45,621 bases of DNA from the sequence record SRR31156797_3992. One strand, 5' to 3'. The notes under the pieces are model-generated. The model was not told the origin of the DNA. It saw nothing but the letters and a program-made list of their open reading frames with translations, and ran no database searches. Shown piece after piece: positions 1,242 through 32,777 of the stretch; the stretch's first letter is position 1, and each line of letters begins with the position of its first letter. Position numbers and translations under genes: made by a program.

Positions 1242-1249
1242 AATACTGT

Positions 1250-2650: not shown

Positions 2651-2655
2651 GCAAA

Positions 2656-4209: not shown

Positions 4210-4290
4210 TTTGAGAGAATTAATCATTACTCAATAGTTTGAGTTTGTTGATATAAAAGTGCTTCAGCTCCTGAGGTATGAATAATCTTT

Positions 4291-5184
4291 TTATATAGAA
4301 CCGGAGTCTATATCCGCCATCTCTAATACTCTTAAAGCACGTTGTACAACAGGAGCGTCAACCATTTTGCCATCAACAGCGAAAACACCGATGCCTTCTG
4401 CCTTATTTCGTTCAAATGCTTTTACAATTTTAGCCGCTTTTCTGATTTCCTGCTCGGTAGGAGTAAAAACCTCGTTTACAATCTCAATCTGTCTTGGATT
4501 GATAATCGCTTTTCCGGTAAAACCAAGTTTTTTTATGTATTCAGCCTCATCTCTTAAACCTTCTTCATCCTCTGTATCAACATAAACCGTATCAAAAACA
4601 TCAATTTTACATGCTTTGGCTGCCATTACAATTTGCTTACGGGCATAATCGATTCCAATGCCATCGTTAGATTTTACTAATTGCATATCGGCTGCTAAAT
4701 CTTGTCCACCAATAGATATGGCATCAATTCTATCAGAATACTGAGCAATTTCATAAACATTCTGAACACCAAGAGCAGTTTCGATCATTACATGAACTTT
4801 CATTTGATCATGAGGTAAACCATGCTCGTCTTCAATTTCTTCAATAACCTGAATAATTCTACTTATCTCTTCTAAAGTTTCCACTTTAGGTAATCTAAGA
4901 GCATCGGGTTGAAGAGGTACGATTTGCTTCAAATCCTCCAATCCAAAAGGTGTGTCAATATGGTTAACTCTTACTGTAACTTCGCATCCTTCGTACGAAA
5001 TGTATTTAAGCATGTGGGATACCAATATTCTGGCAGCATCTTTTTGGTTAAGGGCAACAGCATCTTCCAGATCGAGTAACACCCCATCAGCACCATACAC
5101 GCTTCCTTGCTGTAGCATAGCCGGATTGTTTCCGGGAATATACAGCATAGTACGTCTTTTAAAGTTTTGTTTATTTTTTGTCAT
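4291..5184 (-). CDS. citE: Citrate lyase beta subunit (citryl-ACP lyase)
   Basis: RRTMLYIPGNNPAML, LDLEDAV, LPKVET, IETALG, INPRQI and DGKMVDAPV motifs. Confidence 0.95.
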   Translation of the reverse strand: MTKNKQNFKRRTMLYIPGNNPAMLQQGSVYGADGVLLDLEDAVALNQKDAARILVSHMLKYISYEGCEVTVRVNHIDTPFGLEDLKQIVPLQPDALRLPKVETLEEISRIIQVIEEIEDEHGLPHDQMKVHVMIETALGVQNVYEIAQYSDRIDAISIGGQDLAADMQLVKSNDGIGIDYARKQIVMAAKACKIDVFDTVYVDTEDEEGLRDEAEYIKKLGFTGKAIINPRQIEIVNEVFTPTEQEIRKAAKIVKAFERNKAEGIGVFAVDGKMVDAPVVQRALRVLEMADIDSGSI

Positions 5185-5186
5185 GA

Positions 5187-5480
5187 TTAATTGTTTAGGG
5201 TGCCATTTTGAATTAAAGCAGATCGCTTTATGGCTGTTTCCAACCTGGCAGAAATTGTTGGAGGAAGTGCTCCTTTGTCATTTACAATGATTCTGATATC
5301 ATCAATTTGAAAAGCATCCAAATCGCGATGGATTTGTTGTAGTAAGTCATCGCCAAATTGCTGCATTACAATAGATTTTAGTTCGATGACGCGACCGGAA
5401 CCTTTCTCAACAGGTTCTACTAAAATCAGTATATCACTGGACTCAAAGCTACCTGCCTGAGCTTTTGTTTTTATTACCAT
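5187..5480 (-). CDS. citD: Citrate lyase acyl carrier protein (gamma subunit)
   Basis: AGSFESSD (prosthetic-group Ser), QFG and DKGAL..TISARLETA motifs. ATG 5480 preferred over the TTG at 5510. Confidence 0.93.
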   Translation of the reverse strand: MVIKTKAQAGSFESSDILILVEPVEKGSGRVIELKSIVMQQFGDDLLQQIHRDLDAFQIDDIRIIVNDKGALPPTISARLETAIKRSALIQNGTLNN

Positions 5481-5613
5481 TTCCTGAGGCTTAAAATAAA
5501 TTTTTATCAAATTTTAAACTTCTCAAAAAGAAATCCTAGCAAATAAAGTTGTTATAGAACTACCTGTGATTTTTGTTGTTGTAAGTAATAGATATACAGT
5601 GATATATGGACAC

Positions 5614-17533: not shown

Positions 17534-17592
17534 TTGAGCAGCGTTAGTTCGAGAAAGGTGAATGATATCTAATGGAATTTAAATATTCCTTA

Positions 17593-17600
17593 TACTTTTG
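17593..17600 (+). promoter_or_regulatory. Putative -7 promoter element
   Basis: TACTTTTG lies about 29 nt upstream of ATG 17629, which supports that start. Confidence 0.45.
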
Positions 17601-17628
17601 TCGATATCAAATTTCAATTAAAAATACT

Positions 17629-18492
17629 ATGCGATTTATATTTTTTCTAGTGTTCGGTTTATTATCAAGCGGTCTGATTTTAAATGCTCAGGTTACTGAT
17701 GTGTTTGGAAATAAGGTACCAACAAGTACTAAAAGTGCAACGAAAGGGGTGCCGGCTGGTTCAAATCAAAAAGACGAACAGGGAAGAAAACAAGGTTATT
17801 GGGAAAAACGTTATAGTAATGGAAAGCCATCTTATACGGTTACATTTAAGGATGATAAACCTGTAGGTAAAATGACACGCTATTATTCGAATGGAAATAA
17901 GCAGATAGAAATTGATTACGATGAAAATGGAGAGTACGGTAAAGCAGAACTTTTTTCAGAAGATGGAAAATTAACGGCTAAAGGAGGATATATCGGAAAG
18001 GTTAAAGATGGTCTTTGGGAGTTCTTTTCTCCTGAAGGTTTTTTATATACGCAAGAGAACTATAAAGAAGGGCTTAAGCATGGACTAACAAAGCACTTTT
18101 TTAGAAAAGGAGGTATTGCAGAGGAGTTAGAATGGAAAGAAGATGTGAAGGATGGTATTTGGAAGCAATATTATGAAAATGGACAGCTAAAGATGACTTC
18201 TTCTCATGTAAATGGAGACATAGACGGGGAGTATGTTGTATTCTTTTCTAATGGAAAAATAGAAATTCAAGGCAAGTTTGTAAATGGTGTAGAGGATGGA
18301 ACTTGGATCGTTTTTACACCCGATGGTAGTGTTGCCTATAAGATTGAATATGACAAGGGGAAAGTACTCAATGAGGAATTTTTTGATGAAAAACAGCAGA
18401 AGTTGTTTGAAGAGTTTCAAAAGAATAAAGGAAAGTTGAAAGATCCGGAAGAATTTAAACATGACCCTGATGGTTATATAAGAGGTATGTAG
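17629..18492 (+). CDS. Exported MORN-variant repeat (YwqK-like) protein
   Basis: Signal peptide (MRFIFFLVFGLL...LNAQ) and tandem ~24-aa repeats of the type G.W..YY.NG......Y..G..DG. Confidence 0.8.
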   Translation: MRFIFFLVFGLLSSGLILNAQVTDVFGNKVPTSTKSATKGVPAGSNQKDEQGRKQGYWEKRYSNGKPSYTVTFKDDKPVGKMTRYYSNGNKQIEIDYDENGEYGKAELFSEDGKLTAKGGYIGKVKDGLWEFFSPEGFLYTQENYKEGLKHGLTKHFFRKGGIAEELEWKEDVKDGIWKQYYENGQLKMTSSHVNGDIDGEYVVFFSNGKIEIQGKFVNGVEDGTWIVFTPDGSVAYKIEYDKGKVLNEEFFDEKQQKLFEEFQKNKGKLKDPEEFKHDPDGYIRGM

Positions 18493-18535
18493 AGGTATAA
18501 CTAGAGCTAAGCTTTAGGAATAAAATAAATTTGTG

Positions 18536-20149
18536 ATGAAGTATGTAGTAATTTTATTATTGACAATGGGAGGATTGATCAATTCTCAGCTTTATGCACA
18601 AAAGTATTTTATTTCATTTACCGATAAAGGGCATAATTCTTACACAATTGGTTCTCCAAACGATTTCTTATCAGAAAGATCAATTCAAAGAAGAGAAAAA
18701 CAAGGCATCCTGGTTACAGAACAGGATTTGCCAGTCTCTGATTTTTATGTAGACAGTCTTCGTCATTTGGGACTTAAAACAAGTTGGACGTCTAAATGGT
18801 TAAATGGCGTTATTGTTGAAACAAATAATCAAACACTTCTTGATACGATTACAAATATTTCCTTTGTTTTCGGAGTTCGGCATATAAAACCTAACCTTAT
18901 AACAGCTACTTTCAATAAGTTTATTTCAGAAACTTCCGGTGCTAATGGTAATTTAAAAAGTAGTACAGATTATGGTTTTACATGGGATCAGACTCAAACT
19001 GTAAATGGCCAGCATCTGCATCAGAATAATTATGAAGGTCAGGGGATGGTGATTGCCATTTTAGATGCCGGTTTTAACAATGTGAATACTATATCCTGTT
19101 TTCAGAATATTAGAGATGATGGTAGGTTGTTGAGCTATCGAGATATTGTTAATCCTGACAAAGAGCAATACATTGGGGATTCTCATGGAACCCATGTTTT
19201 TTCTATAATTGGAGGGTTTCAACAGGCAACTTTCAAAGGAAGTGCACCGGAAGCGTCGTTTCATTTGGTTGTTACAGAAGATGTAGATTCGGAATATCCA
19301 ATAGAGGAATATAATTGGGTAATTGGAGCGGAATACGCCGATAGTATTGGTGCAGATGTAATAAACTCCTCTTTAGGTTATTATTTGTTTGATGGCGTTT
19401 TTTCTGATTATAGTTATGCAGATATGGATGGAATTTCTACTGTCGTGGTCTTTGGCGCAGAGACGGCTGTAGAAAAAGGTATGATTGTGGTGAATAGTGC
19501 CGGTAATGAAGGTAATAAATCATGGAATAAAATCATTTCTCCAGCGGATGGAGAGCAGGTGCTTGCAGTAGCGGCTATGTCAGCAGATAGTTTAAGAGCT
19601 TCTTTTAGTAGTTTTGGTCCATCCTATGATGGTCGTGTGAAGCCGGATGTGAGTGGGGTTGGATCACTTACTGCATACCAAACGATTAGCGGAATATATG
19701 AAAGGGGCTATGGTACCAGTTACTCAGCTCCCGTTATTACAGGTTTTGTTTCTTGTTTATGGCAGGCAAATCCAACCTTAAAAAATACTGAAATATTGGA
19801 TTTGGTAAAGGAAAGTTGTAATCAGAATGAGAATCCGGATTACTCTTTTGGGTATGGAATTCCTGATTTTAAAAAGGCATTAAGCAGCAGTACACAAATT
19901 AATGCTGAACAGGTAGAAAGAATAAAGGTATTTCCGAATCCATTTTATAATTCTATTCATGTAAAATCGCATGAAATAATTCAGGAATGTAACCTTATTG
20001 GTCTAAATGGTTATTCTTATTATTCAGCAGATATAAAAAATGAGAGTGAAGTGACACTTGAAAACTTGAGCGATCTGCCAGCAGGTGTTTATTTGCTTAG
20101 GTTAAAAACTTCTCATTCTATATCCGTTCAAAAACTAGTGAAAAAATAG
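18536..20149 (+). CDS. S8 (subtilisin-like) serine peptidase with T9SS C-terminal sorting domain
   Basis: Signal peptide; catalytic triad ILDAGF / SHGT / GTSYSAP; oxyanion SAGN; C-terminal VFPNP...GVYLLRL...KLVKK. Confidence 0.92.
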   Translation: MKYVVILLLTMGGLINSQLYAQKYFISFTDKGHNSYTIGSPNDFLSERSIQRREKQGILVTEQDLPVSDFYVDSLRHLGLKTSWTSKWLNGVIVETNNQTLLDTITNISFVFGVRHIKPNLITATFNKFISETSGANGNLKSSTDYGFTWDQTQTVNGQHLHQNNYEGQGMVIAILDAGFNNVNTISCFQNIRDDGRLLSYRDIVNPDKEQYIGDSHGTHVFSIIGGFQQATFKGSAPEASFHLVVTEDVDSEYPIEEYNWVIGAEYADSIGADVINSSLGYYLFDGVFSDYSYADMDGISTVVVFGAETAVEKGMIVVNSAGNEGNKSWNKIISPADGEQVLAVAAMSADSLRASFSSFGPSYDGRVKPDVSGVGSLTAYQTISGIYERGYGTSYSAPVITGFVSCLWQANPTLKNTEILDLVKESCNQNENPDYSFGYGIPDFKKALSSSTQINAEQVERIKVFPNPFYNSIHVKSHEIIQECNLIGLNGYSYYSADIKNESEVTLENLSDLPAGVYLLRLKTSHSISVQKLVKK

Positions 20150-20155
20150 TCGTGT

Positions 20156-20186
20156 AAAAAAAAATGGAGCCCCATAGGAACTCCAT
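20156..20186 (-). terminator. Rho-independent terminator of the CotH/VTC operon
   Basis: Minus strand ATGGAGTTCC-TAT-GGGGCTCCAT followed by a long T run, about 25 nt after the DUF4956-like stop. Confidence 0.85.
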
Positions 20187-20211
20187 CTATATTTAGCTTC
20201 TTGCTTTAATT

Positions 20212-20877
20212 CTAATCATCATCATCCATTAAATCCTTACTGGTAACATTTGAAACTTCAGAATTATAATAATATATAATTACCTGAGCGGTGTCTCTTA
20301 AAAAATTAATTTTACCAACTTCAGCTCTATGTATTGGTAAACCGGTACGTTCACATAAATCAGCCAAAAGTTCATTGTTTTTTTCAGGTTTAATCAGGTC
20401 GATGTTTTCGTAAATAATTAGCTTGCTCGATTCGTGCTTTAATAAGAAGACGCGTTCCAAACCATAAGTAACAGCAATTACAATAAGGTTGGTTAATACT
20501 ATAACGGCCAAACTAACCTGAGTGCTACTTAAGGCATTGATAGCAGAGGTTCCGATGGTGATAAACAGATAAGTCATCTCTTTAATCGGAATTTGCAAAG
20601 TTCGGTATCTGATAATACCAAAGATGGCAAATAGTCCTAATGCGAAACCTAATTGCAGTTTAACACTTCCTAAAAGAAAGCATAGTAAAAATACGATAGT
20701 ACTTATCAGTAAAAAAGTAAATAAGTAGTCTTTTCTTTTTGCGGTTTGATAGTATAAAACCCGCACTAAAACAAGAGATACAAGTAAGTTAAAAGTAAAG
20801 CGTATTAGTAAGTCAAAAAAGTTGTTCCATTCAACAATGCTGACGTCAAATATTTTCATTCCCAGTAATAATTCCAT
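20212..20877 (-). CDS. DUF4956-like inner-membrane protein
   Basis: About 4-5 hydrophobic segments; LGFALGLFAIFGIIRYRT...IKEMTYLF motif; soluble C-terminal domain (DLCERTGL...GKINFLRD). Confidence 0.85.
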   Translation of the reverse strand: MELLLGMKIFDVSIVEWNNFFDLLIRFTFNLLVSLVLVRVLYYQTAKRKDYLFTFLLISTIVFLLCFLLGSVKLQLGFALGLFAIFGIIRYRTLQIPIKEMTYLFITIGTSAINALSSTQVSLAVIVLTNLIVIAVTYGLERVFLLKHESSKLIIYENIDLIKPEKNNELLADLCERTGLPIHRAEVGKINFLRDTAQVIIYYYNSEVSNVTSKDLMDDDD

Positions 20878-20884
20878 AGATAGT

Positions 20885-21646
20885 TTAATTTTCGAATTCT
20901 GCTTTTATTTTTTTTATAAGGTTAAACTTTTGTTTTAACATGTTTGATTTCACTTCTTTATTGATGGATGCTGTACCCATGCAATACTTACTGAATGATT
21001 GAGAGCGAATCTTATTTTCTTTAAGTACTTTTTGAACGGTTGATCCCAATGTAAATTTCTCCTGCTTAAGTTCCAGAATGAAAATCTCTGGAAACGAAAT
21101 TGAAATATCATCTTCCGGATCTTTAAATGCTAAGTCAAAATCAATAGTAACCCTTTCCGTTTTACCCACCAGAGTTATTCTTTTAAAGTGATTAAATAGT
21201 TTTGATTCCAGATCTTGCCCTTCGAAAGGGGAGTGGTTTTGCAGGAAATCGTGTTCGTGATCTGTAAAAGAGAATTCTTCATTGTCTCTTTTTATCCTGT
21301 TTTTAATGGTTCTTCCTTTGTTGGTTTTGAATTTAACTTCTAGGTATTGCTGTTTCACATGAACATACTCGCGTTTACGAACTTTGTACCTGTTTAACTT
21401 CCCATTTTGATGATCTTCATACATTCTGAACTCTTTGGTATCGAAGTATTCTGTTTTGTAGGGAAAAACTCTGCAATTATCGATTTCAAGAATTTTGTAT
21501 TCATCAACTAATTCATTTAATACCAATGAAAGATTATCCGATGAACCAATGAATTTGGTGTCAATTCTGTTCATTAGACTAACATGCTCCATATCGATGA
21601 GCGAGATAGCTTGAAATTTTTCTACAGTATTGTGTACATCCAACAT
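20885..21646 (-). CDS. VTC-domain (polyphosphate polymerase-like, triphosphate tunnel metalloenzyme) protein
   Basis: LMNRIDTKF, Y.T.YFDT, NGKLNRYKVRKREY, YLEVKFK, RITL...ERVTIDFDL, ILELK and FSKYCMG motifs; no signal peptide or TM segment. Confidence 0.88.
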   Translation of the reverse strand: MLDVHNTVEKFQAISLIDMEHVSLMNRIDTKFIGSSDNLSLVLNELVDEYKILEIDNCRVFPYKTEYFDTKEFRMYEDHQNGKLNRYKVRKREYVHVKQQYLEVKFKTNKGRTIKNRIKRDNEEFSFTDHEHDFLQNHSPFEGQDLESKLFNHFKRITLVGKTERVTIDFDLAFKDPEDDISISFPEIFILELKQEKFTLGSTVQKVLKENKIRSQSFSKYCMGTASINKEVKSNMLKQKFNLIKKIKAEFEN

Positions 21647-21674
21647 AATATCATGGTTTTACGATAAAAGTGTA

Positions 21675-22385
21675 TTAAGATTTTTTCTTAGCTCTAAACT
21701 TTAACAGTTTGGGTTCCCATTCAATATTAAAATACAGAATATTTACCTTGTCAGGCTTAGCTACATTAAATTCATCTTGTCTTTTAAAGGACAAAGAGGC
21801 ATTTACTCTTTTTGATACTTTCTTTTCCAGTGATATAAAATATCGGTTTTTATACTCACCAACATCTTCAGCCGGAGCTAAGCAAAAGAAGTATTCAATT
21901 CCCATAGATGGTTCAACAAACCATTTTTTGTTTTTGTATTTAAGGCTAACCTTGTGTCTGTGTTCCCAGTATTGAATATGTCCATCCGCTGAAGAATGAA
22001 TGTTTGCTTGTTCTTTCTGAATTTGCGAACGATAGCTCCATCTAAGTCGATTGGTTTTAAAACCAAATTTGGTATATAAAGCCAGCCTATGAACGCGTTC
22101 GTTCATTCGAGGATCGTCGTATTCAACCTGGTATCGATAAGCTCCACCTACATCAAGCCATTTGCTAATGGGAGCAGAGATGTTCAGTTCTGTCTGCCAG
22201 CTGCTCAACTGTCGTGAGTTATCGAATAACCTTATTTGAGGTTCAATCGAAAAATCAACTTTTTTATAAAGATTCCCCTTAAAAGATACGTTGTACCAGG
22301 TGTTGAAATCTTCTTGTTGAGCAATTGCAATAGTTGAACAAACCGCTAGTATGATTAGTGCTAAAGAGCGTTTATTCATTTTCAT
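21675..22385 (-). CDS. DUF2490-like outer-membrane beta-barrel protein
   Basis: Signal peptide (…IAIAQ); alternating amphipathic strands rich in W/Y/F/R; typical companion of DUF4956/VTC. Confidence 0.7.
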   Translation of the reverse strand: MKMNKRSLALIILAVCSTIAIAQQEDFNTWYNVSFKGNLYKKVDFSIEPQIRLFDNSRQLSSWQTELNISAPISKWLDVGGAYRYQVEYDDPRMNERVHRLALYTKFGFKTNRLRWSYRSQIQKEQANIHSSADGHIQYWEHRHKVSLKYKNKKWFVEPSMGIEYFFCLAPAEDVGEYKNRYFISLEKKVSKRVNASLSFKRQDEFNVAKPDKVNILYFNIEWEPKLLKFRAKKKS

Positions 22386-22790
22386 CTATTTTACAACAAA
22401 TAATGTATCTACAGTTATTGTTTGTTTGCGTGATTTAATAGCAACCTTTCGCATAACTGTATCAAGTTCAGAAGTTATGTTGTAGTCATATTCTTTATTT
22501 TTAGAATAGGCATAAATGGTGTAATCTCCTTCTTGTAAATAATTAAATTCGAAATAACCATTGTATCCGGTTTCTATTTTATCGCTATGATATTCATCAT
22601 CGCCATAAATAATGAAAACATCATAATCCTGCGCAGGATAGTCACCTCGATGAATAGTAAAATCGAAGTTGTAATCCTGAATAATTACTGTGCCGCGAAT
22701 AGTGCCCATTCCTCCTTCACCAGCTTCTTTTTCGCAAGCTCCCAATACAATGGTTAGGGCTATAATAATTAGAAATGCAATTTTCTTCAT
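22386..22790 (-). CDS. Hypothetical lipoprotein (small beta-sandwich, carboxypeptidase-regulatory-like)
   Basis: Lipobox LGAC (Cys19) after a hydrophobic stretch; GTIRGTV and G.FEF..L..G.Y.IYAYS patterns. Confidence 0.75.
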   Translation of the reverse strand: MKKIAFLIIIALTIVLGACEKEAGEGGMGTIRGTVIIQDYNFDFTIHRGDYPAQDYDVFIIYGDDEYHSDKIETGYNGYFEFNYLQEGDYTIYAYSKNKEYDYNITSELDTVMRKVAIKSRKQTITVDTLFVVK

Positions 22791-22813
22791 GTGTATTTTA
22801 TATAATATTTTTC

Positions 22814-25800
22814 TTATTTAAAAAGCACTTTTGTGGTTTTAATTCCTTGAGTGTTCATTAATCTTATCATGTAAATACCTTTAAGGTCTTGATGAACTTC
22901 GCTTTTGTTAAATGTAACACGATGCTCTCCACTAAAGAAATAATCATCTGCAATCGTTTTTACTATTGCTCCATTAATGCCAATTAAGTCAATCCTGTAA
23001 TTGTCCGAATTTTCTACATTAAAGGTAATGTTTAGCGTATTTTCAACCGGATTAGGATAACATTGTAGACTTGTATTAAAGCTTTCACCAATTGGTGTAA
23101 TGCTGTTTGGTATTTGTTCCGCATTTTCTTCTCCAGGAGTACCGCCCCTAAATGAGGCAAACCAATTATTCCCGTTTTCGTTGGCAGTATATTGATCCGT
23201 TAAAGAGCATGAGGCACCTAAACCGTTTGCCTCAGCTGGCCAACTACCTGAAGGGTAATAATCAACAGCATCAACAATGGAATTGTCGCTATTAAATAAT
23301 CTTAAAGCATCTCCCGAACTGCTTAGTCCGAAGATAAAATCACCCATTACATTTTTAACCCAAGGGTAAGTAGTTTTAAATTTTTTGATGTCTTTACAGA
23401 TTACAACATATTCGTCCGGACCTAACAAGTACGAAGAAGGTATTACATACGCAGAATCTTTATTAGAATCTCTGAAAACCCAATCTTTAAGATCAATGGT
23501 TGTTTCTCCATAATTATATAATTCAACCCAATCGCCAGGTTTTATATTGTCTGAGCTTTTATAAAAAATTTCATTAATGGCAACCTTATTTTCTTCTCCA
23601 GCAATTGCTTCAAAAACTGCCGTATGCGACATATTTTGACTAATGTCATAGCTTATGTTTTTATTGGTCGAAGTGGAACTACCTGACCATCTTACGAAAC
23701 GATATCCTGGTTTTGGGATCGCGGTAAGTTCCATCGGAACCTGATTAAAATAAGTGCCGGTTGATGGATAATCTTCAGGATGAAGGGTGTTCATTTTTAT
23801 AGTTCCACTGTTTGCCGGCGATACGTTTAATGTAACTGTTCTACTGCCGCTAAATCCCATTTCTGAACCAAGGAAAGAGCGATAATAAGTTGGACGGTTA
23901 TTAGCAAAAGTCTTCATTCTGGCTGGCTGATTACTCCAATTCGTGTAATCTAAATCCCATCTATCGCAATGTGCAACCATCTCAGTTGTATACAAGGCTG
24001 TAAAATCATCAATAATAGTATTGATTGAATCGGGCTGCCAATGCGTATTCAGATAATCACATCCTCTTTGAACAAACTTCTTTTTAAATTCCGTATTTTC
24101 CATTAGGCTTCGGAATAATAAGGTTGCCCATTCTTCATTATGCAATCCTGTCAATGTTTCAGAAGATGCATAAGCAATGGTGTTGTTGGTATAGTTTTGA
24201 TTTCCATATAAATTAAAACCAAAATCAGTGTCAAAAAGCACCCATCGATATTTACTGGCATCGTTAGTTGTATTCCAGAATTTGTTATTATTTCCAGGCC
24301 AATCTGTGTTATCAACGTAAGTTTGAATCAGATAGTAGTCGATAAAATTTTCTATGTCGATAACACTACATACATATTCATAATTGTCGTCGGACTGTAA
24401 GGAATTAGTTTGGACAAAATTAAGCATCTCAACATACTTGGTACCTTCTCCATTTTCAATGACACCATTGGTTTCGTAGGTTGATTCCAACATGCGTACC
24501 TCGTCAGCGTCTATGTGCGTATTGTCTGATACGAAATGCTCATTTATTTTTTCGCGCATATTTAAGATACCCCAATATTGGCCGTTGATATAAACAGCAG
24601 TCGGCTGAATTCCTTGGTATTCAACCCCTATTTCACTCATTGCTGTTGTCATCATACCATCTCTAAAGTGAGCGTAGTAGAAATCATTACCTGCATTTCG
24701 AAGTACTATTGCTTCAAACTTATCATTGTCTTTGCTATCAAAGAATTTATAGCTAAAGGATCCGTCACCATATTCTTTTCTGGCAAACAGAGCTAAGGAT
24801 TTTTGAGGATGAGCACGCGACCATGCACCGTAAATTTTAACTCCGGCTCCCTGATCAATTTGTTTTACACCATTCTCATCATAATATTCAAAATGAACCG
24901 GTTTTTCCCAATCCTGCCAAAAGTTGGCTCCGTAATATGGATTAGATGACGAAGCATTTGGCCCTAACTCGTAAATTCCCGTATAATAATCAAATAAGTT
25001 TTCCGGATTTGTAGAAAGACTTACTATTGGAAATGAATGGTTAAGAGATAATACGTATGTTTCTGTACCTACTGGGCCAGGTAACTGTCCGTCATTAATT
25101 ACTCTGGCACGAATAACTATATCTGAGGTAAATGCAATTGCTCCTGTATAAAGGGTGCTGCTTGTAGTTGGAACAGAACCATCTGTTGTATAGTAAATAC
25201 TTCCTTCGGTATTGTTTTTTGTGGATAATTGAACCGACATACTACTGGTTCTAAGATTACCTCCAGGAACTGAAAAAACAACAGTATCTGTTAATCCTGA
25301 TGTAATGCCATTGTTACCATTAGATAAGAATGGCGTTGGTGTTTCAAAGTAATACCAATCGTCGCCGCCATCCGGCTGACGTCCGTATGAAACATCTGCA
25401 GGAACATTGGTAGCGCCCACTGAATCAACAAACACTTTATTATTAAATAAGTAAAGAGCTTCTCCCTCTGCTTTTATTTTAAAATTGGTATGAAGGTATG
25501 ATTCTGGGACTGTAATGTGTTCGGAAATAGAGTTTGTTCCGCTGGATTTTAACCCAAGAGTTAAAATAGGGATGCAGGATAAATCCGATGATGTAGTTGA
25601 ATGATTATGAACCTCAACAGCAAAAACATTAGTTCCTTGCACTAAAATATCTTCCCAACCATATACTTTAAATTCATCAGGTGTGAGACCTTGGTATATT
25701 TTTGCTTCATGATCATAAGCATCAGCTGCAGCATCAAAAGCAATTGCTGTACCTGGCGTTCCAAGACGGTCTCTGGCAATTTCAACGCCATTGATGTAAG

Positions 25801-26374
25801 CAGCAAATCCATCGTCGTAATCCATATGAAATATGAGTTGCGTTACGTCACTGATATTTGCTATGTTGAATTCTTTTCTGGCATAAACACTCATAACAGT
25901 ACCTGTTTCTGTCGCATCGTCGCTATCGCCAAAACCAAATCCGGAAGCACCACTGGACCAACTTGAAGCATCAAAACCAGTGTTTTTCCATGTATCTCCA
26001 ATATCGCTTCCCGGAACTAAATAATTCATTGTTGTACCTTGATCTATAATAGAGTTCCAGGTGTTTGTGATAGAGGTTTTGTCTTTCCCGGAAGCAAATA
26101 CAACTTGATATTCTCCGGGAGCTATTTGTAGGGCAGGAAATGCCCATTTAGTAGTGTCGTCAATATTGTCTGTTAATGTATATTGACCCAGGCTGATAGT
26201 TTGGTCAGAGGTATTTAATATCTCAATCCAATCAGGAAATTCTCCATCTTCATCTGATAATTGAGTAATATTGGAAGAAACAAATTCGTTAATTTTGATT
26301 TGAGCTCTAACTGGCAAAAATCCAAGAATAAGGATTCCTACAAGCAGATACCGAAGGTGTTTAATAGATTTCAT
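22814..26374 (-). CDS. CotH kinase family protein with lamin-tail domains and T9SS sorting domain
   Basis: Signal peptide; two LTD-like segments (IKINEF...DWIEILN; VAINEI...DWVELYN); IYYTTDGSVPT module; CotH core (KIYGAWSR, QKSLAL, YINGQYWGIL..REK, DWPGNN, W...DTDFGF); CTD CYPNP...GIYMIRL...KVLFK. Confidence 0.9.
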   Translation of the reverse strand: MKSIKHLRYLLVGILILGFLPVRAQIKINEFVSSNITQLSDEDGEFPDWIEILNTSDQTISLGQYTLTDNIDDTTKWAFPALQIAPGEYQVVFASGKDKTSITNTWNSIIDQGTTMNYLVPGSDIGDTWKNTGFDASSWSSGASGFGFGDSDDATETGTVMSVYARKEFNIANISDVTQLIFHMDYDDGFAAYINGVEIARDRLGTPGTAIAFDAAADAYDHEAKIYQGLTPDEFKVYGWEDILVQGTNVFAVEVHNHSTTSSDLSCIPILTLGLKSSGTNSISEHITVPESYLHTNFKIKAEGEALYLFNNKVFVDSVGATNVPADVSYGRQPDGGDDWYYFETPTPFLSNGNNGITSGLTDTVVFSVPGGNLRTSSMSVQLSTKNNTEGSIYYTTDGSVPTTSSTLYTGAIAFTSDIVIRARVINDGQLPGPVGTETYVLSLNHSFPIVSLSTNPENLFDYYTGIYELGPNASSSNPYYGANFWQDWEKPVHFEYYDENGVKQIDQGAGVKIYGAWSRAHPQKSLALFARKEYGDGSFSYKFFDSKDNDKFEAIVLRNAGNDFYYAHFRDGMMTTAMSEIGVEYQGIQPTAVYINGQYWGILNMREKINEHFVSDNTHIDADEVRMLESTYETNGVIENGEGTKYVEMLNFVQTNSLQSDDNYEYVCSVIDIENFIDYYLIQTYVDNTDWPGNNNKFWNTTNDASKYRWVLFDTDFGFNLYGNQNYTNNTIAYASSETLTGLHNEEWATLLFRSLMENTEFKKKFVQRGCDYLNTHWQPDSINTIIDDFTALYTTEMVAHCDRWDLDYTNWSNQPARMKTFANNRPTYYRSFLGSEMGFSGSRTVTLNVSPANSGTIKMNTLHPEDYPSTGTYFNQVPMELTAIPKPGYRFVRWSGSSTSTNKNISYDISQNMSHTAVFEAIAGEENKVAINEIFYKSSDNIKPGDWVELYNYGETTIDLKDWVFRDSNKDSAYVIPSSYLLGPDEYVVICKDIKKFKTTYPWVKNVMGDFIFGLSSSGDALRLFNSDNSIVDAVDYYPSGSWPAEANGLGASCSLTDQYTANENGNNWFASFRGGTPGEENAEQIPNSITPIGESFNTSLQCYPNPVENTLNITFNVENSDNYRIDLIGINGAIVKTIADDYFFSGEHRVTFNKSEVHQDLKGIYMIRLMNTQGIKTTKVLFK

Positions 26375-26470
26375 AAAGCAAATTTTCCTGATAATTCAAA
26401 TAACAAAGTCCCCGTGTAATATCTCAATTCAACTAAATTTGAGTCTATTGAGATGTAAAAAAACATCCTG

Positions 26471-26478
26471 CAAAATTA
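26471..26478 (-). promoter_or_regulatory. Putative -7 promoter element for the CotH/VTC operon
   Basis: Minus strand TAATTTTG lies about 97 nt upstream of the cotH ATG. Confidence 0.4.
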
Positions 26479-26875: not shown

Positions 26876-27754
26876 TTAATTAGTAATATTTCCAGCGTAC
26901 TTTATACGATATTGATTTGGAGTTAGTTTTTTTATGTTTTTGAACTGGCGATTAAAATAGGAAAGACTATTATAACCACAATCCATAGCGATACTTCCAA
27001 AAGCTTCATTTGAATTAGCTATCATATGACAGGCGTATTCAATCCGCAAGTTATTTAAAAAATGACTAAAAGACTTTCCGGTTCTTTTCTTAAAATATCT
27101 ACAAAAAGAATTTGTAGTCATGTTGGCCATTTGTGCCACTTCTTCTAATGTAATCTCATTGGCAAAATTCAGAGATAAATGCTGAAAAATAACATTTATT
27201 CTTTCATGGTCTGTTTCTTTTGATGGCTGAATAAATGGGGTTGTACTAAGGAGTTGAATGTTTTCGATGCAGGATAAATAGTGGAATAAGTTTATAATAT
27301 GCAAAAAGCGTTCGAAATCTTTTATTTTAAAAGCTCGCAATATTTGATTACTTATTTTCTCACTTTCTTTTTGAGGAAAGAAGATTCCATACTGGGATGA
27401 TTCTAAAAGACGGTGAATAGAAACCAATTCAGGTAAATCCAGAAATTGCTTTCCCAGTGTTTCGTCATTTAAAAATATAGATACGCAGTGACTTTCCAGT
27501 TTTGCCCCTTCATTATAGTATTCCTGATCAGAGCGAAAGACATGAGGAACATTTTTTCCGATTAAAAAAACATCTCCAGGTTTATACCTCTCAACTGAAT
27601 TACCTATAAAACAGGTGCCTTCACCTTTTAATACTAAGGTAAGTTGGTATTCCGGGTGATAATGTATGGAATCATAAAAATAAACAGAATGGTCTTCTTG
27701 AAGCCTAAATGTAGCTTCTGAAGTTTTAGGGATAATGAATCTAACGGCCTTCAT
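26876..27754 (-). CDS. AraC-family transcriptional regulator (probable regulator of the hydroxyproline cluster)
   Basis: N-terminal cupin (HYHPEYQL...PHVF) and C-terminal double HTH (FCRYFKKRTGKSF...CGYNSLSYFNRQFK...TP..YR); divergent from the cluster. ATG 27754 preferred. Confidence 0.92.
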   Translation of the reverse strand: MKAVRFIIPKTSEATFRLQEDHSVYFYDSIHYHPEYQLTLVLKGEGTCFIGNSVERYKPGDVFLIGKNVPHVFRSDQEYYNEGAKLESHCVSIFLNDETLGKQFLDLPELVSIHRLLESSQYGIFFPQKESEKISNQILRAFKIKDFERFLHIINLFHYLSCIENIQLLSTTPFIQPSKETDHERINVIFQHLSLNFANEITLEEVAQMANMTTNSFCRYFKKRTGKSFSHFLNNLRIEYACHMIANSNEAFGSIAMDCGYNSLSYFNRQFKNIKKLTPNQYRIKYAGNITN

Positions 27755-27854
27755 ATTGTCTAAATTAACTCTTTTTAACTGCATAAACATTATAAAGGGT
27801 AATATAGTTCAAACGTTGGTTAAATTAGCACTAAAAAGAGAATAAAAGGTCTTT

Positions 27855-27862
27855 TATGTTTG
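27855..27862 (+). promoter_or_regulatory. Putative -7 promoter element for the hydroxyproline cluster
   Basis: TATGTTTG lies about 31 nt upstream of ATG 27893. Confidence 0.5.
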
Positions 27863-27892
27863 TAATATCAATAATCATTAAAACGAAAGCAT

Positions 27893-28786
27893 ATGAAACC
27901 AACATGGACAGGAGTTTATCCGGCAATTACAACAAAATTTACAAAGACAGGCGAATTAGATATTCCATTATTTCTTAAAAACATCGATTTTCAAATTGAG
28001 TGTGGTGTATCCGGTATTATTGTAGGGGGGTCTTTGGGTGAATCAAGTACCTTAAGTAAAGAAGAGAAACTAAAGCTAATTGAGGTACTGCAGCCATATC
28101 GTGATAAGATACCTGTAATCATGAATATTGCAGAATCCAGCACAGCCAGGGCTATTGAAGCGGCTAAAGAAGCTGAAGCTAATGGGGCAGACGGTTTAAT
28201 GTTGTTGCCACCATTATTGTATAAGCCAGATGAAGCAGAAACTGTGGCATACTTTACAGAGGTTGCGAATAGTACTAAATTACCCATTTTACTTTATAAC
28301 AACCCTGTAGATTACAAAGTAGAAATAACTTTATCTATGTTTGAAGATTTAAAAGAAGTGCCAAATATTGAAGCGGTTAAGGAATCAACTCGAGATGTTA
28401 CCAATGTAATTAGGATGCGAAATGCATTTGGTGGTCGATTTAAAATTATGGGAGGTGTTGATACCTTATGTTTAGAGGAGTTAATGTTAGGAGCTGATGG
28501 TTTAGTAGCCGGATTAGTGGCTGCTTTCCCTAAAGAAACGGTTGTATTACATGATTTGGCTAAAGAAGGAAAGTTTGACGAGGCTGTAGAGTTGTACAAA
28601 TGGTTTATGCCATTATTGGAAATGGATATTAAACCAAAGTTAGTTCAATACATCAAGTTAGCAGAAGTGTACACAGGTATTGGTTCTGAATATGTACGTG
28701 CTCCAAGAAAAGCTTTAGTTGGAGAGGAAAGAGAACAGACCATTGCTACTATTGAAACAGCTTTAGCTTCTCGACCTAAATTTTAA
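27893..28786 (+). CDS. DapA/NAL-family protein, probable 1-pyrroline-4-hydroxy-2-carboxylate deaminase (LhpC-like)
   Basis: WTGVYPAITTKF, GSLGE, LYNNP, Schiff-base VKES and LVQYIKL motifs; operon context. Confidence 0.85.
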   Translation: MKPTWTGVYPAITTKFTKTGELDIPLFLKNIDFQIECGVSGIIVGGSLGESSTLSKEEKLKLIEVLQPYRDKIPVIMNIAESSTARAIEAAKEAEANGADGLMLLPPLLYKPDEAETVAYFTEVANSTKLPILLYNNPVDYKVEITLSMFEDLKEVPNIEAVKESTRDVTNVIRMRNAFGGRFKIMGGVDTLCLEELMLGADGLVAGLVAAFPKETVVLHDLAKEGKFDEAVELYKWFMPLLEMDIKPKLVQYIKLAEVYTGIGSEYVRAPRKALVGEEREQTIATIETALASRPKF

Positions 28787-28802
28787 TTTAAAGAAACAGC
28801 TT

Positions 28803-30275
28803 ATGTCATCTTTAGAAATAAAAATAGACGAGGTTATGAATTTGGCATCTTTGGCTTTTACCGAATACCGAAAGCTTTCGGGAGCCATAAAAGCCAAATT
28901 CATTAAACAAATTACAGAGGAGATAGAACAGATTGGAGATGAGCTTATTCATACGGTAATGGAAGAAACTGCATTGCCTGAGGCTAGGGTTAGAGGTGAA
29001 AGAGGGCGAACTGTGAATCAGCTCCTTCAATTTGCAGAAATGATCGAAGAAGGGTCCTGGGTAAATGCCATCATAGAAGAGGGTAACCCTGATAGAGAGC
29101 CATTGCCTAAACCTGATTTAAGAAGAATGCTGATACCAATGGGGCCGGTGGTTGTATTTGGTGCGGGGAATTTTCCTTTGGCATTTTCAGTGGCAGGAGG
29201 AGATACAGCATCAGCCTTGGCTGGTGGAAATCCGGTAGTGGTAAAGGGGCATCCAGCTCACCCTAAGACAGGTAAGCTGGTGGCAGATGCCATTCTTAAA
29301 GCAGTCGAAAAATGCAATTTACCAAAGGGAACCTTCTCTTATATAGAGGATAGTAGTTATGATGCGGGGCAGTTGTTGGTTAAACACCCCCAAACAAAAG
29401 CGGTAGCATTTACAGGTTCAGAAAAAGGTGGACGTGCTTTATTTGATATTGCCAATCAGAGAGAAGAACCTATTCCGGTATTTGCAGAAATGGGAAGTAT
29501 TAATCCGGTTGTTGTTCTACCTAAAGCTCAGGAAAAGAAGTATAAGGAAATAGCAAAAAATCTGGTGGCTTCTGTCAATATGGGAGCAGGACAGTTTTGT
29601 ACTAATCCCGGACTGATTATTACGCAAAAGGAAGGAACTCTTGACTTGTTTCTTCAGGCATTAGGAGAGGAAGTGATGGCTGCTTCGCCAACCACCATGT
29701 ATAGTGAAGGTATTTTAAAGAACTATCAAACAGGGTTAAGTACTATACTGGCACAAGATGGAATTGCTACACTAAATCTTGAAAAGGTTGATATAAGTGG
29801 AGAGAAGGCTGTCCCGGTATTAGGAACAGTGGAGGCTTGTCATTTTATCAGTAACCCGGAAATGCACAAAGAAATTTTTGGTCCTTTTAGCTTAGTGGTT
29901 GTTTGCGATTCAGCAGATCAAATGGAAGAAGTAGCAAAGGTTTTAAAGGGTCAGCTAACTTGTACAGTTCATGCGCTTGAAGAAGAAATGGAAGATTACA
30001 AAGTGGTCATTGATGAACTGATGATGAGATGTGGACGAGTATTGTTTAATGGTGTTCCTACTGGGGTAGAAGTTTGTGCAGCGATGCAACATGGAGGACC
30101 TTACCCAGCTTCAACTGATGTTCGATTTACTTCTGTTGGAACCGAAGCAATTAAGCGTTTTGTTCGCCCTGTGAGTTATCAGGATTGGCCGGATAGTTTA
30201 TTGCCTTTGGAGTTACAAAGAGAGAATGTGTTAGGTATTTGGCGAAAGGTAAATGGTCGATTAACGAAAGATTAA
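28803..30275 (+). CDS. Aldehyde dehydrogenase, probable alpha-ketoglutaric semialdehyde dehydrogenase (LhpG-like)
   Basis: NFPLAFSVAGGDTASALA, KGHPAHP, FTGS, EMGSINP, GQFCTNPG, EIFGP and HGGPYPA motifs. Confidence 0.9.
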   Translation: MSSLEIKIDEVMNLASLAFTEYRKLSGAIKAKFIKQITEEIEQIGDELIHTVMEETALPEARVRGERGRTVNQLLQFAEMIEEGSWVNAIIEEGNPDREPLPKPDLRRMLIPMGPVVVFGAGNFPLAFSVAGGDTASALAGGNPVVVKGHPAHPKTGKLVADAILKAVEKCNLPKGTFSYIEDSSYDAGQLLVKHPQTKAVAFTGSEKGGRALFDIANQREEPIPVFAEMGSINPVVVLPKAQEKKYKEIAKNLVASVNMGAGQFCTNPGLIITQKEGTLDLFLQALGEEVMAASPTTMYSEGILKNYQTGLSTILAQDGIATLNLEKVDISGEKAVPVLGTVEACHFISNPEMHKEIFGPFSLVVVCDSADQMEEVAKVLKGQLTCTVHALEEEMEDYKVVIDELMMRCGRVLFNGVPTGVEVCAAMQHGGPYPASTDVRFTSVGTEAIKRFVRPVSYQDWPDSLLPLELQRENVLGIWRKVNGRLTKD

Positions 30276-30295
30276 ACAAAGAAACTTGATCAACT

Positions 30296-31312
30296 ATGGC
30301 GAAAAAAACTTTTTTCTGTATAGATGGGCACACATGTGGAAATCCGGTGAGAGTTGTTGCCGGAGGTGTGCCCCCATTAAAAGGGAAGTCAATTTCTGAA
30401 AAGCGCGAGCACTTCCTCAAGGAATTTGACTGGATTAGAACCGGACTCATGTTTGAACCGAGAGGTCATGAGCAAATGTCTGGAAGCTTATTGTTTCCTC
30501 CGGAAAATCCGCAAAACGACGCAGGTATTCTATTTATCGAAACCAGTGGCTGTTTGCCAATGTGTGGACATGGGACAATTGGAACGGTTACTATTGCTAT
30601 TGAAGAAGGATTGATCCTTCCGCAAACGCCAGGTAAACTAAGATTGGAAACGCCAGCAGGATTGGTTGTGGCCAACTATAAACAAAACGATAAAGGAAAA
30701 GTAACTTCAGTTAAGATTATTAATATTCCATCTTTTCTTTATGCGCGAGGATTGGATGTAAAGAGTTCAATTCTGGGAAATTTAAAGGTTGATGTAGCCT
30801 ATGGAGGTAATTTCTATGCCATTGTTGATGAGCAGGAAAACTATAGTGGGATGCATAAATTTACTGCAGATGAACTAATTTCTTATAGTGGAGAAATAAG
30901 GCAGTATTTAAATGATCATTACCAGTTTATTCATCCGGAGAATCCTAAAATTAATGGATTGAGTCATGTGTTGTGGACAGGAAATCCAATAAATGCAAAT
31001 GCAGATGCACGTAATGCAGTTTTTTATGGAGAAAAGGCTATTGATCGTTGTCCGTGTGGAACAGGTACTTCAGCAAGAATGGCACAGTGGTTTTCCAATG
31101 ACAAATTAAAAGTAGGAAGCTCATTTGTTCACGAAAGTGTTATTGGTAGCCAGTTTATTGGAACCGTAGAAGAATCACTAAAAGTAGGTGAGTATGATGC
31201 CATAATTCCGGGAATTGAAGGTTGGGCCAAAGTTACAGGCTATAATCATATTATTATAGACCCGGAAGATGATATTTATGCACATGGCTTTAGAGTGGTT
31301 GGTATGTTATAA
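30296..31312 (+). CDS. 4-hydroxyproline 2-epimerase (proline racemase family, LhpA-like)
   Basis: IDGHTCGNPVR, EPRGH, catalytic MCGHG and DRxPCGTGTSA, YGGNFY; operon context. Confidence 0.88.
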   Translation: MAKKTFFCIDGHTCGNPVRVVAGGVPPLKGKSISEKREHFLKEFDWIRTGLMFEPRGHEQMSGSLLFPPENPQNDAGILFIETSGCLPMCGHGTIGTVTIAIEEGLILPQTPGKLRLETPAGLVVANYKQNDKGKVTSVKIINIPSFLYARGLDVKSSILGNLKVDVAYGGNFYAIVDEQENYSGMHKFTADELISYSGEIRQYLNDHYQFIHPENPKINGLSHVLWTGNPINANADARNAVFYGEKAIDRCPCGTGTSARMAQWFSNDKLKVGSSFVHESVIGSQFIGTVEESLKVGEYDAIIPGIEGWAKVTGYNHIIIDPEDDIYAHGFRVVGML

Positions 31313-31351
31313 CTTTAAATAGAAGTTATTTCACTTTTTAAAAAATATTGA

Positions 31352-31430
31352 AGAAACTAGCTTTGGGCACTTCTCTCATAAGTTATCTTGGTTTTTTTAG
31401 GTTTTGATAAGAGAGAGTGAGCTGGTTTCT
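31352..31430 (+). other. Extended imperfect RNA hairpin in the intergenic region
   Basis: Pairings AGAAACTAGCT/AGCTGGTTTCT, CAC/GTG, TCTCTC/GAGAGA and TTATC/GATAA close a G/T-rich loop. Confidence 0.55.
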
Positions 31431-31535
31431 GAATAGACAATAAAACAAATTGAAACAAACCATGAGTAAAAAGTCCTGATGATAAAGGATAATTAAAATG
31501 GTGAGTTCCATGTGACAATTAAATATTTCAGACAC

Positions 31536-32777
31536 ATGAAAAAAGTACTCATTATAGGTGCCGGAGCAATTGGATTACATTGTGCTTATTATCTAAAAGA
31601 AATGGGGCACGAGGTTGAGATATTGGATGCCCGGGAAGAAAACGATTATTCAGCTTGCTCTTATGGTAATTGCGGCTTTATGGTTCCAAGCCATTTTTTA
31701 ACAATGGCATCACCAGCTATATTGAAAAGTGGTGTTCATATGCTATTTCAACCTAATGGACCAATTGCTTTTAATTTACTAAATAACCTCCAGCGAATGG
31801 GTTGGTTTATGAAGTTTACAGCAGCATCGTTAAAAAAAAATAAAGTAAAAAGAGCTATTCCTCTGTTATATGATCTGAATTATAAAAGCAATTTACTTTA
31901 CAAGCAATTTAATTGGGATAATGATTACCAAAGCAAAGGGTTATTGATGGTGTCAACTTCACACAAGGGGATGATTGAAGAATTGGAAGTTTCTAAGTTA
32001 GGGAATGAATTAGGTATTAAAACTGATGTACTAAATAATGAGGACTTAAATAAATTAGAACCAGATGTAGAGTTTAATGCATTAGGAGCGGTACTTTACC
32101 ATTCAGACGCTCATTTAAATCCCGCTAAGCATATGGAAGCGCTGGAATCTTGGTTGAAAGAAAATGGTGTGGTATTTCATTATGGACAATCTGTGAGTAA
32201 AATAGAGGTGCAAAAGGGTAAAATAAATGCGGTATTTTGTGGAGAAGATCAGTTTAAAGCTGATGAATACATACTAACGGCCGGCGTTGCATCTTATCAT
32301 TTAGCTAAAGATTTAGCTATTAATTTGCCAATCATTTCAGGTAAGGGGTATAGTATGGATTTTAACCAAGATTTACTAAACTTAAAAACACCTGTTATAT
32401 TAACGGATGAAAAAGTAGCCATATCTCCTTATGAAAATACAGTTCGTATAGGAAGTGGAATGGAGTTTAATGGATCGATAGGAAAAGTTAATTACAAAAG
32501 GGTTCAGGGAATATTGGATGCTACGCATAAAGTCATTCCTACATTTAAAAAACAAAATGCACAAGAGTTAGACTTGTGGGAAGGTCAGCGACCGCTTTCT
32601 GCAGATGGAGTACCTTTTATTGGACGAACAAAAAAGTATAGTAATTTAACCATTGGAGCTGGACATGCTATGATGGGGATGAGTCTGGCACCAATTACAG
32701 GTCAGATGATTGCCCGGATTATTCAAGGAGAAAAACAAGAAATTTCATCTCCGTTATTGTCCCCGGATCGATACTAG
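31536..32777 (+). CDS. FAD-dependent D-amino acid dehydrogenase, probable D-hydroxyproline dehydrogenase (LhpB-like)
   Basis: IIGAGAIG, SYGNCG, GKGYS, W.G.RP...DG.P.IG and GHAMMGMSLAPITG motifs. ATG 31536 preferred. Confidence 0.88.
   Translation: MKKVLIIGAGAIGLHCAYYLKEMGHEVEILDAREENDYSACSYGNCGFMVPSHFLTMASPAILKSGVHMLFQPNGPIAFNLLNNLQRMGWFMKFTAASLKKNKVKRAIPLLYDLNYKSNLLYKQFNWDNDYQSKGLLMVSTSHKGMIEELEVSKLGNELGIKTDVLNNEDLNKLEPDVEFNALGAVLYHSDAHLNPAKHMEALESWLKENGVVFHYGQSVSKIEVQKGKINAVFCGEDQFKADEYILTAGVASYHLAKDLAINLPIISGKGYSMDFNQDLLNLKTPVILTDEKVAISPYENTVRIGSGMEFNGSIGKVNYKRVQGILDATHKVIPTFKKQNAQELDLWEGQRPLSADGVPFIGRTKKYSNLTIGAGHAMMGMSLAPITGQMIARIIQGEKQEISSPLLSPDRY

Follow-up and report, generated by a model that had tools for sequence, protein, structure and literature searches.

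The question raised by this locus is what five head-to-tail genes, whose predicted products are spread from the cytoplasm to the cell surface, accomplish together. The genes occupy positions 26374..20212 on the minus strand of a 45,621-nucleotide (nt) stretch of DNA from sequence record SRR31156797_3992, which is called the window throughout. They encode a secreted multidomain CotH kinase-like protein of 1186 amino acids (aa) (gene 1, 26374..22814), a 134-aa lipoprotein with the lipobox LGAC (gene 2, 22790..22386), a 236-aa DUF2490 outer-membrane beta-barrel (gene 3, 22385..21675), a 253-aa VTC-domain enzyme resembling the triphosphate tunnel of Vtc4, cytoplasmic as judged by its lack of a signal peptide (gene 4, 21646..20885), and a 221-aa DUF4956 inner-membrane protein (gene 5, 20877..20212). 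The original prediction held that the VTC and DUF4956 proteins make and translocate polyphosphate (polyP) or another phosphoryl donor, that the barrel and lipoprotein pass it across the outer membrane, and that the surface kinase uses it. Its family and targeting assignments were borne out for all five proteins by Pfam matches and signal sequences. The reading we favour is a polyP synthase-exporter that would span both membranes and have CotH as a lineage-specific surface client, and we give it somewhat less than an even chance.

Gene neighbourhoods were compared in two samples. The first comprised 41 related genomes (23 from the nearest genus, 2 from the family and 16 from the order), with adjacency taken by hand from the coordinates; VTC and DUF4956 were each matched in 27 of the 41, CotH in 23 and DUF2490 in 29. 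DUF4956 was directly downstream in 32 of the 34 VTC matches found there, the exceptions being G030, at a contig edge, and G016. The second sample consisted of 80 loci from a one-genome-per-species collection, mostly Bacteroidota with one Neomarinimicrobiota and one Calditrichota, searched with our own hidden Markov models (HMMs). VTC was recovered in 79 of these loci, and DUF4956 lay directly downstream in 77 of the 79 (L064 is a real absence, L102 a contig end). The distance from VTC stop to DUF4956 start had a median of -7.5 nt; of the 74 pairs for which it was measured, 70 had 15 nt or less. Three of the 14 control genomes gave a VTC match, and the same three a DUF4956 match: B. thetaiotaomicron, C. 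glutamicum and M. acetivorans. The check proposed with the original prediction, HMM searches combined with neighbourhood co-occurrence, thus came out positive, and the counts support a near-obligate, tightly coupled VTC-DUF4956 pair.

The other members were less constant. Among the 43 wider loci with full flanks (5 kb or more upstream and 4 kb or more downstream), DUF4956 was present in 42, DUF2490 in 35, CotH in 16, the lipoprotein in 14 and Cthe_2159, described below, in 2. The commonest arrangements in the 79 loci were VTC-DUF4956 and lipoprotein-VTC-DUF4956-DUF2490 (16 each), followed by VTC-DUF4956-DUF2490 (13), the same with a short CotH behind it (10) and long CotH-lipoprotein-VTC-DUF4956-DUF2490 (6); the order of the window, lipoprotein-DUF2490-VTC-DUF4956, was found in 4. 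From these pairing counts we take VTC-DUF4956 to be the core, which in these diderm lineages is usually joined by the barrel and often by the lipoprotein, CotH being optional. The neighbours of partner-less VTC loci were unrelated housekeeping genes. In G001, the nearest genome, the locus of the window was found at 97-100% protein identity.

The VTC protein matched the Pfam family VTC (PF09359) with 84.1 bits against a cut-off of 23 (E 1.5e-23), its residues 26-228 covering profile positions 1-234. The family is large: in a search of 1.84 billion proteins, 6,935 representative clusters matched at E up to 0.001, and 2,274 still did so at E up to 1e-30. Neither phmmer nor a profile of 18 VTC sequences found a match for the protein among PDB sequences. 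A profile of 150 representative VTC sequences (A5) reached yeast Vtc4 (3g3q, E 1.7e-4) and Vtc2 (3g3o, E 5.7e-4), and was aligned to 3g3q, in which chain index + 185 gives Vtc4 numbering. A cryo-EM preprint on the VTC complex names eight residues that bind triphosphate and are required for polyP in vivo (K200, R264, R266, K281, Y359, R361, S457 and K458) and one, E426, that binds Mn (10.1101/2023.01.27.525886). Eight of these nine residues were identical in the window protein: K200 corresponded to K31, R264 to R90, R266 to R92, K281 to K105, R361 to R156, E426 to E192, S457 to S219 and K458, within an invariant S-K-Y motif, to K220. All eight were invariant across the 150 VTC relatives. The ninth, Y359, corresponded to F154. 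Of the nine, K458 carries most weight, because Vtc2 and Vtc3, which are inactive, have Ile or Leu in its place (10.1101/2023.01.27.525886). Triphosphate tunnel metalloenzyme (TTM) hydrolases have an acidic patch of four glutamates, at a place where Vtc4p is reported to guide the chain out by basic residues (Martinez et al. 2015, PMC4641920). Three of the four patch positions could be mapped in the window protein, which has the basic R27 and K194, as in Vtc4, and the acidic Asp29. The protein looks like a polymerase, beyond having the tunnel fold, and the VTC-type tunnel enzyme of the original prediction is sharpened to one with a Vtc4-like active site. PPK1 was present in all five genus genomes checked, three of which have no VTC, so the VTC module is not the sole polyP route of the cell; we count a role separate from storage polyP in favour of the synthase-exporter.

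Gene 5 matched Pfam DUF4956 (E 1.4e-49). Its structure model (predicted local distance difference test, pLDDT, 75) had five predicted helices and a C-terminal beta-alpha-beta-beta domain, and an alignment of the family (A3) showed an invariant loop, R90-Y-R92-T ... K99-E-M-T-Y. By the positive-inside rule we infer that this loop, a KRK loop and the C-terminal domain would all face the cytoplasm, where the VTC protein is. A structure search with the model gave no informative match; the best (Z 9.1) were helical bundles in the non-specific range, which does not imply a novel fold. An Atlas search with the family itself excluded gave no usable match either. Likeness to MgtC, which had been proposed for the DUF4956 protein of S. 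intermedius, was not seen: hhalign of 17 DUF4956 against 8 MgtC sequences, both small alignments, gave a probability of 0.3%, and the MgtC HMM had no match on the DUF4956 genes. A prediction of the VTC-DUF4956 complex, run without use of alignments, scored 0.02, the mark being 0.34, and counts neither for nor against a contact. Three fusion proteins were found, each in one record: VTC-DUF4956 (P0001, 526 aa), DedA-VTC (P0002, 530 aa) and VTC-hydrophobic segment-CotH (P0003, 678 aa), the last with its VTC and CotH domains at opposite sides of the membrane segment. Each may be a true fusion or a gene-calling artefact, and the support they lend is weak.

The barrel of gene 3 was assigned to DUF2490 (E 6.7e-18), the sole Pfam family matched at E up to 0.01, and its signal peptide ends AQ/Q. 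AlphaFold2 modelled a 12-strand barrel (pLDDT 81, predicted template-modelling score 0.74). A wide VIA structure search with this model ranked NanC first (Z 16.5, root-mean-square deviation (rmsd) 3.1 over 177 residues), ahead of KdgM (Z 16.4, with 157 residues at rmsd 2.3) and VhGalP (Z 15.4); sequence identity to the matched structures was 8-12%. NanC, KdgM and VhGalP are uptake channels for acidic oligosaccharides. A Foldseek search of the same model gave unspecific porin matches with low template-modelling scores. When the less hydrophobic face of each strand was taken as the lumen face, nine lumen positions were conserved as basic (R52, R84, R100, R119, R143, K145, K179, R181 and K189) and four as acidic. 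The model thus agrees with the outer-membrane DUF2490-like barrel first proposed and adds a fold nearest to acidic-oligomer porins and a predicted basic lumen. The family is listed as a putative porin only (PMC4827864). DUF2490 adjoined 29 of the 34 VTC matches in the relatives, and in the control genomes it was matched in B. thetaiotaomicron and Caulobacter. At L125-L130, in six genus genomes, a DUF2490 paralogue has a conserved place behind genes for a PASTA-domain protein, an RluD-like protein and D-Ala-D-Ala ligase (Ddl); the neighbours at the 12 unlinked paralogue loci gave no clue to a substrate.

The lipobox of the 134-aa lipoprotein is followed by CEKEAGEGG. It had sub-threshold Pfam matches only, to beta-sandwich families (fn3_3, Y_Y_Y and SdrD_B), and 29 of its 30 Atlas matches were clusters without a common Pfam family, Bacteroidota being the commonest phylum; it belongs to an unnamed Bacteroidota family whose fold is probably a beta-sandwich. 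Homologues were found at L013, L018, L022 and L032, and at 29 of the 79 wider loci. A partnership with long CotH, first drawn from four loci, was overturned when 20 of the 29 lipoprotein-bearing loci proved to be without CotH. The counts support a link of both barrel and lipoprotein to the VTC-DUF4956 pair.

Gene 1 matched CotH at residues 512-830 (23885..24841, minus strand; E 1.4e-44, 153.4 bits). From the N-terminus, the protein consists of a signal peptide, an LTD domain, CHB_HEX_C/Fn3_assoc, CotH, an InlB B-repeat-like region (Flg_new_2), a second LTD domain and a type IX secretion system (T9SS) sorting domain (residues 1106-1183, 22826..23059, minus strand; Por_Secre_tail, 32.2 bits against a cut-off of 27). 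With a signal peptide, read from the sequence, and this C-terminal domain, it has both marks of predicted type IX cargo. The CotH domain profile matched B. cereus CotH (5jd9, E 1.1e-28), and phmmer with the whole protein found no match among PDB sequences. D691-x4-N696, D715 (in DTDFG) and E608 were invariant across 11 long and short CotH proteins (alignment A4). We take D691, N696 and D715 to have catalytic or metal-binding roles, by analogy with protein kinases and from the roles reportedly assigned in Nguyen 2016. The kinase looks active, its catalytic site being intact.

CotH adjoined 13 of the 34 VTC matches in the relatives, or 14 when the G030 locus, split over two contigs, is counted. 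The gene also occurs without VTC in G013, G026, G038 and G041, and 9 of the 27 VTC-bearing relatives had no CotH match anywhere in the genome. Since it was missing from 27 of the 43 full-flank loci and from these nine genomes, the core does not exist for CotH. In the control genomes CotH was found in B. thetaiotaomicron, C. glutamicum, M. acetivorans and B. subtilis. At L032 (G006:C99, 3253-7908) the order is CotH-lipoprotein-DUF2490 and at L031 (G032:C1, 4159-7055) CotH-DUF2490, with VTC-DUF4956 elsewhere in each genome; the barrel thus shows linkage to CotH in addition to VTC. At L028 (G016:C166, 2757-8636) VTC comes directly after a long CotH, with a phage-type integrase gene next, and the lipoprotein, the barrel and DUF4956 are missing, no DUF4956 having been detected anywhere in G016; the locus appears to have been rearranged or to be decaying.

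Besides CotH, the core has another type of surface partner, Cthe_2159 (PF14262), a lipoprotein with a long acidic, Ser-rich linker that adjoins VTC-DUF4956-DUF2490, mostly in place of CotH. Its genes were located at L015 (7041-8828), L017 (1560-3275), L020 (5666-7399), L021 (5935-7716), L023 (2112-3896) and L026 (4903-6639). Cthe_2159 exceeded the cut-off in the VTC-bearing genomes G001 and G002, beside their VTC loci, and in none of three genomes without VTC. L023 is a second module of G001 (G001:C1:2729381-2732961), ordered Cthe_2159-VTC-DUF4956-DUF2490, and several genus genomes have two or three VTC modules each. Long CotH proteins combine a signal peptide with a T9SS sorting domain, whereas the short CotH proteins (about 465-490 aa) and the Cthe_2159 partners (570-595 aa) are lipoproteins with an acidic run after the cysteine (C-R-D-D-D or C-E-R-D-I-D-S-D). 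This run resembles the surface-export signal of Bacteroidota lipoproteins. These targeting signals assign all of the optional partners to the cell surface.

The best-supported model for these data is a polyP synthase-exporter, whose inner-membrane part may be likened to the eukaryotic VTC complex and whose overall plan to that of synthase-dependent exopolymer systems. The conserved active site suggests that the cytoplasmic VTC tunnel enzyme would polymerise polyP from ATP as yeast Vtc4 does. DUF4956, for which gene coupling and topology are the evidence, would carry the growing chain across the inner membrane. The 12-strand DUF2490 barrel, by its fold, basic lumen residues and gene linkage, would let the polymer out across the outer membrane, possibly together with the lipoprotein. 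At the surface, the T9SS-secreted CotH would be a co-expressed, lineage-specific client that binds, modifies or consumes the exported polymer. In other lineages Cthe_2159 would be the surface client under the same model.

Several observations weigh against such an exporter. Phe154 of the window VTC replaces Tyr359, and the exchange Y359F in yeast Vtc4 is reported to reduce polyP (10.1101/2023.01.27.525886). Asp29 lies at an acidic-patch glutamate site where Vtc4 has Thr198, and the alignment stretch that holds E426, S457 and K458 scores -1.2 bits by itself, its placement resting on residue order and motif. For DUF4956, no resemblance could be detected either to a solved channel or to DUF202, the membrane domain of eukaryotic VTC. 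Autotransporter barrels were nearly tied with the porins (Z 15.4-14.9, about 1 Z unit below the top), so that the 12-strand fold class of DUF2490 is firm but a specific kinship with NanC and KdgM is not. In one preprint, 238 of 2,789 DUF2490 models had buried salt-bridge networks, which could mean a closed lumen (10.64898/2026.07.29.741452). DUF2490 was also found away from VTC, at the 12 paralogue loci in unrelated contexts, in the VTC-less G017 and in Caulobacter, which gave no VTC match. CotH was present in only 16 of the 43 full-flank loci, and 16 of the 79 wider loci had VTC-DUF4956 with neither barrel nor lipoprotein nearby.

Part of this list would fit a product that never leaves the cell envelope: VTC-DUF4956 would make polyP or a short oligophosphate that is retained in the periplasm or at or within the inner membrane, where it might, for example, buffer cations or have a regulatory role, and the barrel, lipoprotein and CotH would be co-regulated without forming a conduit. 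Loci with the pair alone, Gram-positive and archaeal control genomes that carry the pair without DUF2490, the scattered DUF2490 paralogues and the buried charge network predicted for part of that family are as this would have it. However, DUF2490 adjoins the pair in 29 of 34 and 35 of 43 loci, its basic lumen residues are conserved and every optional partner is predicted to be a cell-surface protein, and we consider this explanation unlikely. The direction of transport could instead be inward, with surface proteins capturing external polyP or another polyanion, a KdgM-like barrel admitting it and the VTC protein acting as a tunnel phosphohydrolase in phosphate scavenging. The nearest solved barrels are uptake porins, Asp29 and Phe154 depart from Vtc4, Cthe_2159 is annotated as an acidic-polysaccharide binder (by its Pfam name), and hydrolases make up most characterised TTM enzymes (PMC4641920). 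Against these points, the Lys458 equivalent and the basic residues in place of the acidic patch indicate the polymerase type, DUF4956 has no energising module, and no phosphate-starvation or transporter genes were found in the operon, its flanks or the partner-less VTC loci; an inward system therefore appears highly improbable.

The remaining alternative concerns what the exported polymer is for. Exported polyP could be the phosphoryl donor of the surface CotH, and the purpose of the operon could be the ecto-phosphorylation of proteins or glycans. CotH shares one operon with the core in the window and adjoins it in the 13 and 16 loci counted above, its D-x4-N motif and DFG-like Asp show no variation between long and short forms, all of its forms are predicted to be targeted to the surface, where ATP is in short supply, and it occurs together with VTC and DUF4956 in B. 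thetaiotaomicron, C. glutamicum and M. acetivorans. Deletion of the CotH or DUF4956 homologue of S. intermedius also reduces Pel-dependent aggregation (PMC12345266). These points are opposed by the 27 full-flank loci and nine VTC-bearing relatives that lack CotH, by the loci in which the non-kinase Cthe_2159 substitutes for it, and by the four genomes that have CotH without VTC. The sole characterised CotH, in addition, reportedly uses ATP, and no polyP-dependent protein kinase of the CotH fold is known to us. Fuelling of CotH by polyP is an attractive idea, but the linkage from which it comes is facultative, and we judge it unlikely, both in itself and as the purpose of the operon. The joint reading is distinctly unlikely: it would have a second, eukaryotic-type polyP pathway in Bacteroidota and their relatives, in which VTC polymerises, DUF4956 threads, a KdgM-like barrel and the lipoprotein release, and a secreted CotH uses polyP instead of ATP. 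In that case the fuelling of extracellular kinases would be explained.

As to the organisation of the locus, the five open reading frames are separated by gaps of 23, 0, 28 and 7 nt, recomputed from their listing and equal to the values first given for five co-oriented genes. Sequence features support reading them as a single operon with one terminator. The terminator was located at 20188..20162 (minus strand) as an intrinsic hairpin with a 12-pair stem, a loop of 3 and a T run (-17.1 kcal/mol, z = -3.0), its energy being equalled by 2 of 200 shuffles. The upstream element that had also been claimed was located as well: TAATTTTG, a Bacteroidota-type -7 promoter-like element at 26478..26471 (minus strand), 97 nt 5' of the CotH ATG, is a positional match to the consensus. 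The TANNTTTG motif occurred 55 times in the window, compared with 63.5 ± 7.5 times in shuffles, and had two further minus-strand matches inside the CotH gene. Because the motif is not enriched, TAATTTTG is merely a consensus match at the right place, and this half of the earlier claim stands only in that form.

The operon is flanked by ordinary chromosomal genes, among them those for citrate lyase, 2-oxoacid:ferredoxin oxidoreductase and G6PD and a cluster of hydroxyproline type that includes an AraC regulator. This last region (26876-32777), in which an AraC-family regulator is divergent from genes for DHDPS-like, aldehyde dehydrogenase, proline racemase-like and FAD oxidase proteins, looks like a hydroxyproline catabolic cluster, and the AraC gene (26876-27790) more likely serves it than the operon. 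At 17572-20149, genes for a MORN-repeat protein and a subtilase converge on the operon terminator; the T9SS sorting domain of the subtilase is borderline (27.0 bits against a cut-off of 27). A complete citrate lyase set (citC-like ligase, citXG fusion, citF, citE and the acyl-carrier subunit) was found on the minus strand at 165-5510.

PPK1 and PPK2 are held to account for bacterial polyP, and the VTC polymerase is regarded as belonging to eukaryotes. The reviews consulted map VTC across eukaryotes only. If the synthase-exporter is real, bacteria would have a second, compartment-directed polyP route and a source of extracellular polyP. The module would also make testable which donor and which targets secreted CotH kinases have, a long-standing puzzle that extends to the unexplained accessory genes of Gram-positive pel biofilm loci. 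VTC, DUF4956, DUF2490, CotH and Cthe_2159 were all matched in the B. thetaiotaomicron control genome, so that genetics is within reach. The expression change of BT3498-99 of B. thetaiotaomicron under iron depletion (-7.6-fold) was not significant (P = 0.175).

Our literature search found no paper on the Bacteroidota form of the module or on the activity of any bacterial VTC protein. This agrees with the remark in the original prediction that functional characterisation is lacking, except for the deletion phenotypes of S. intermedius: deleting the DUF4956 or CotH homologue within SIR_1592-1594 lowers Pel and aggregation, and that paper offers no mechanism (PMC12345266, 2025). It also states that the trio was not found outside pel loci (PMC12345266). 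A gene for CotH, a polyphosphate-polymerase gene and DUF4956 are given as accessory genes of Gram-positive pel loci in Whitfield 2020 (PMC7112168), and VTC, membrane protein and CotH genes are neighbours in NELoc-2 of C. perfringens (PMC2879425). The gene trio was thus already known beside Gram-positive pel operons; what is new is the active-site match, the VTC-DUF4956 coupling, the likeness of the barrel, the linkage of the lipoprotein and the optionality of CotH.

Compared with known systems, the locus shares with the eukaryotic VTC complex (yeast Vtc4/Vtc3 or Vtc2/Vtc1; PDB 3g3q) the Pfam VTC tunnel domain with eight of nine active-site residues, including the Lys458 equivalent, and a cytoplasmic catalytic domain encoded with a membrane protein. 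It differs in having neither SPX nor DUF202 (the single Pfam family found was VTC for the 253-aa enzyme and DUF4956 for its membrane partner), in a membrane partner that is unrelated and a separate polypeptide, in Phe for Tyr359 and Asp29 for Thr198, and in outer-membrane and surface components that have no eukaryotic counterpart. With the Gram-positive pel accessory genes and NELoc-2 it has in common the same three families as neighbours, a CotH predicted to be secreted and an unexplained function; unlike these, it is a diderm form that includes a DUF2490 barrel, a lipoprotein and targeting by the T9SS, and the trio sits among housekeeping genes with no pel locus adjoining. The 12-strand KdgM/NanC porins are the best structural matches of the DUF2490 model and are likewise small, of monomeric size and provided with many basic lumen residues; however, the DUF2490 protein does not belong to their sequence families, they serve uptake, and other 12-strand barrels score almost equally. 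The Bacillus CotH spore-coat kinase (5jd9, 5jda) has a homologous kinase domain with conserved catalytic Asp, Asn and metal-binding Asp, whereas the window protein has 1186 aa, is predicted to be T9SS-secreted, contains LTD and carbohydrate-binding-like domains and belongs to a lineage that does not sporulate. In its overall plan the locus would be analogous to the synthase-dependent exopolymer systems (alginate, cellulose, Pel and poly-N-acetylglucosamine), in which one operon likewise encodes a polymerase in the cytoplasm, a passage through the inner membrane and a dedicated barrel in the outer membrane. The window operon differs from them in being without a glycosyltransferase, a cyclic di-GMP receptor and a tetratricopeptide-repeat scaffold, its barrel has 12 strands rather than 16-18, and its polymer would be inorganic.

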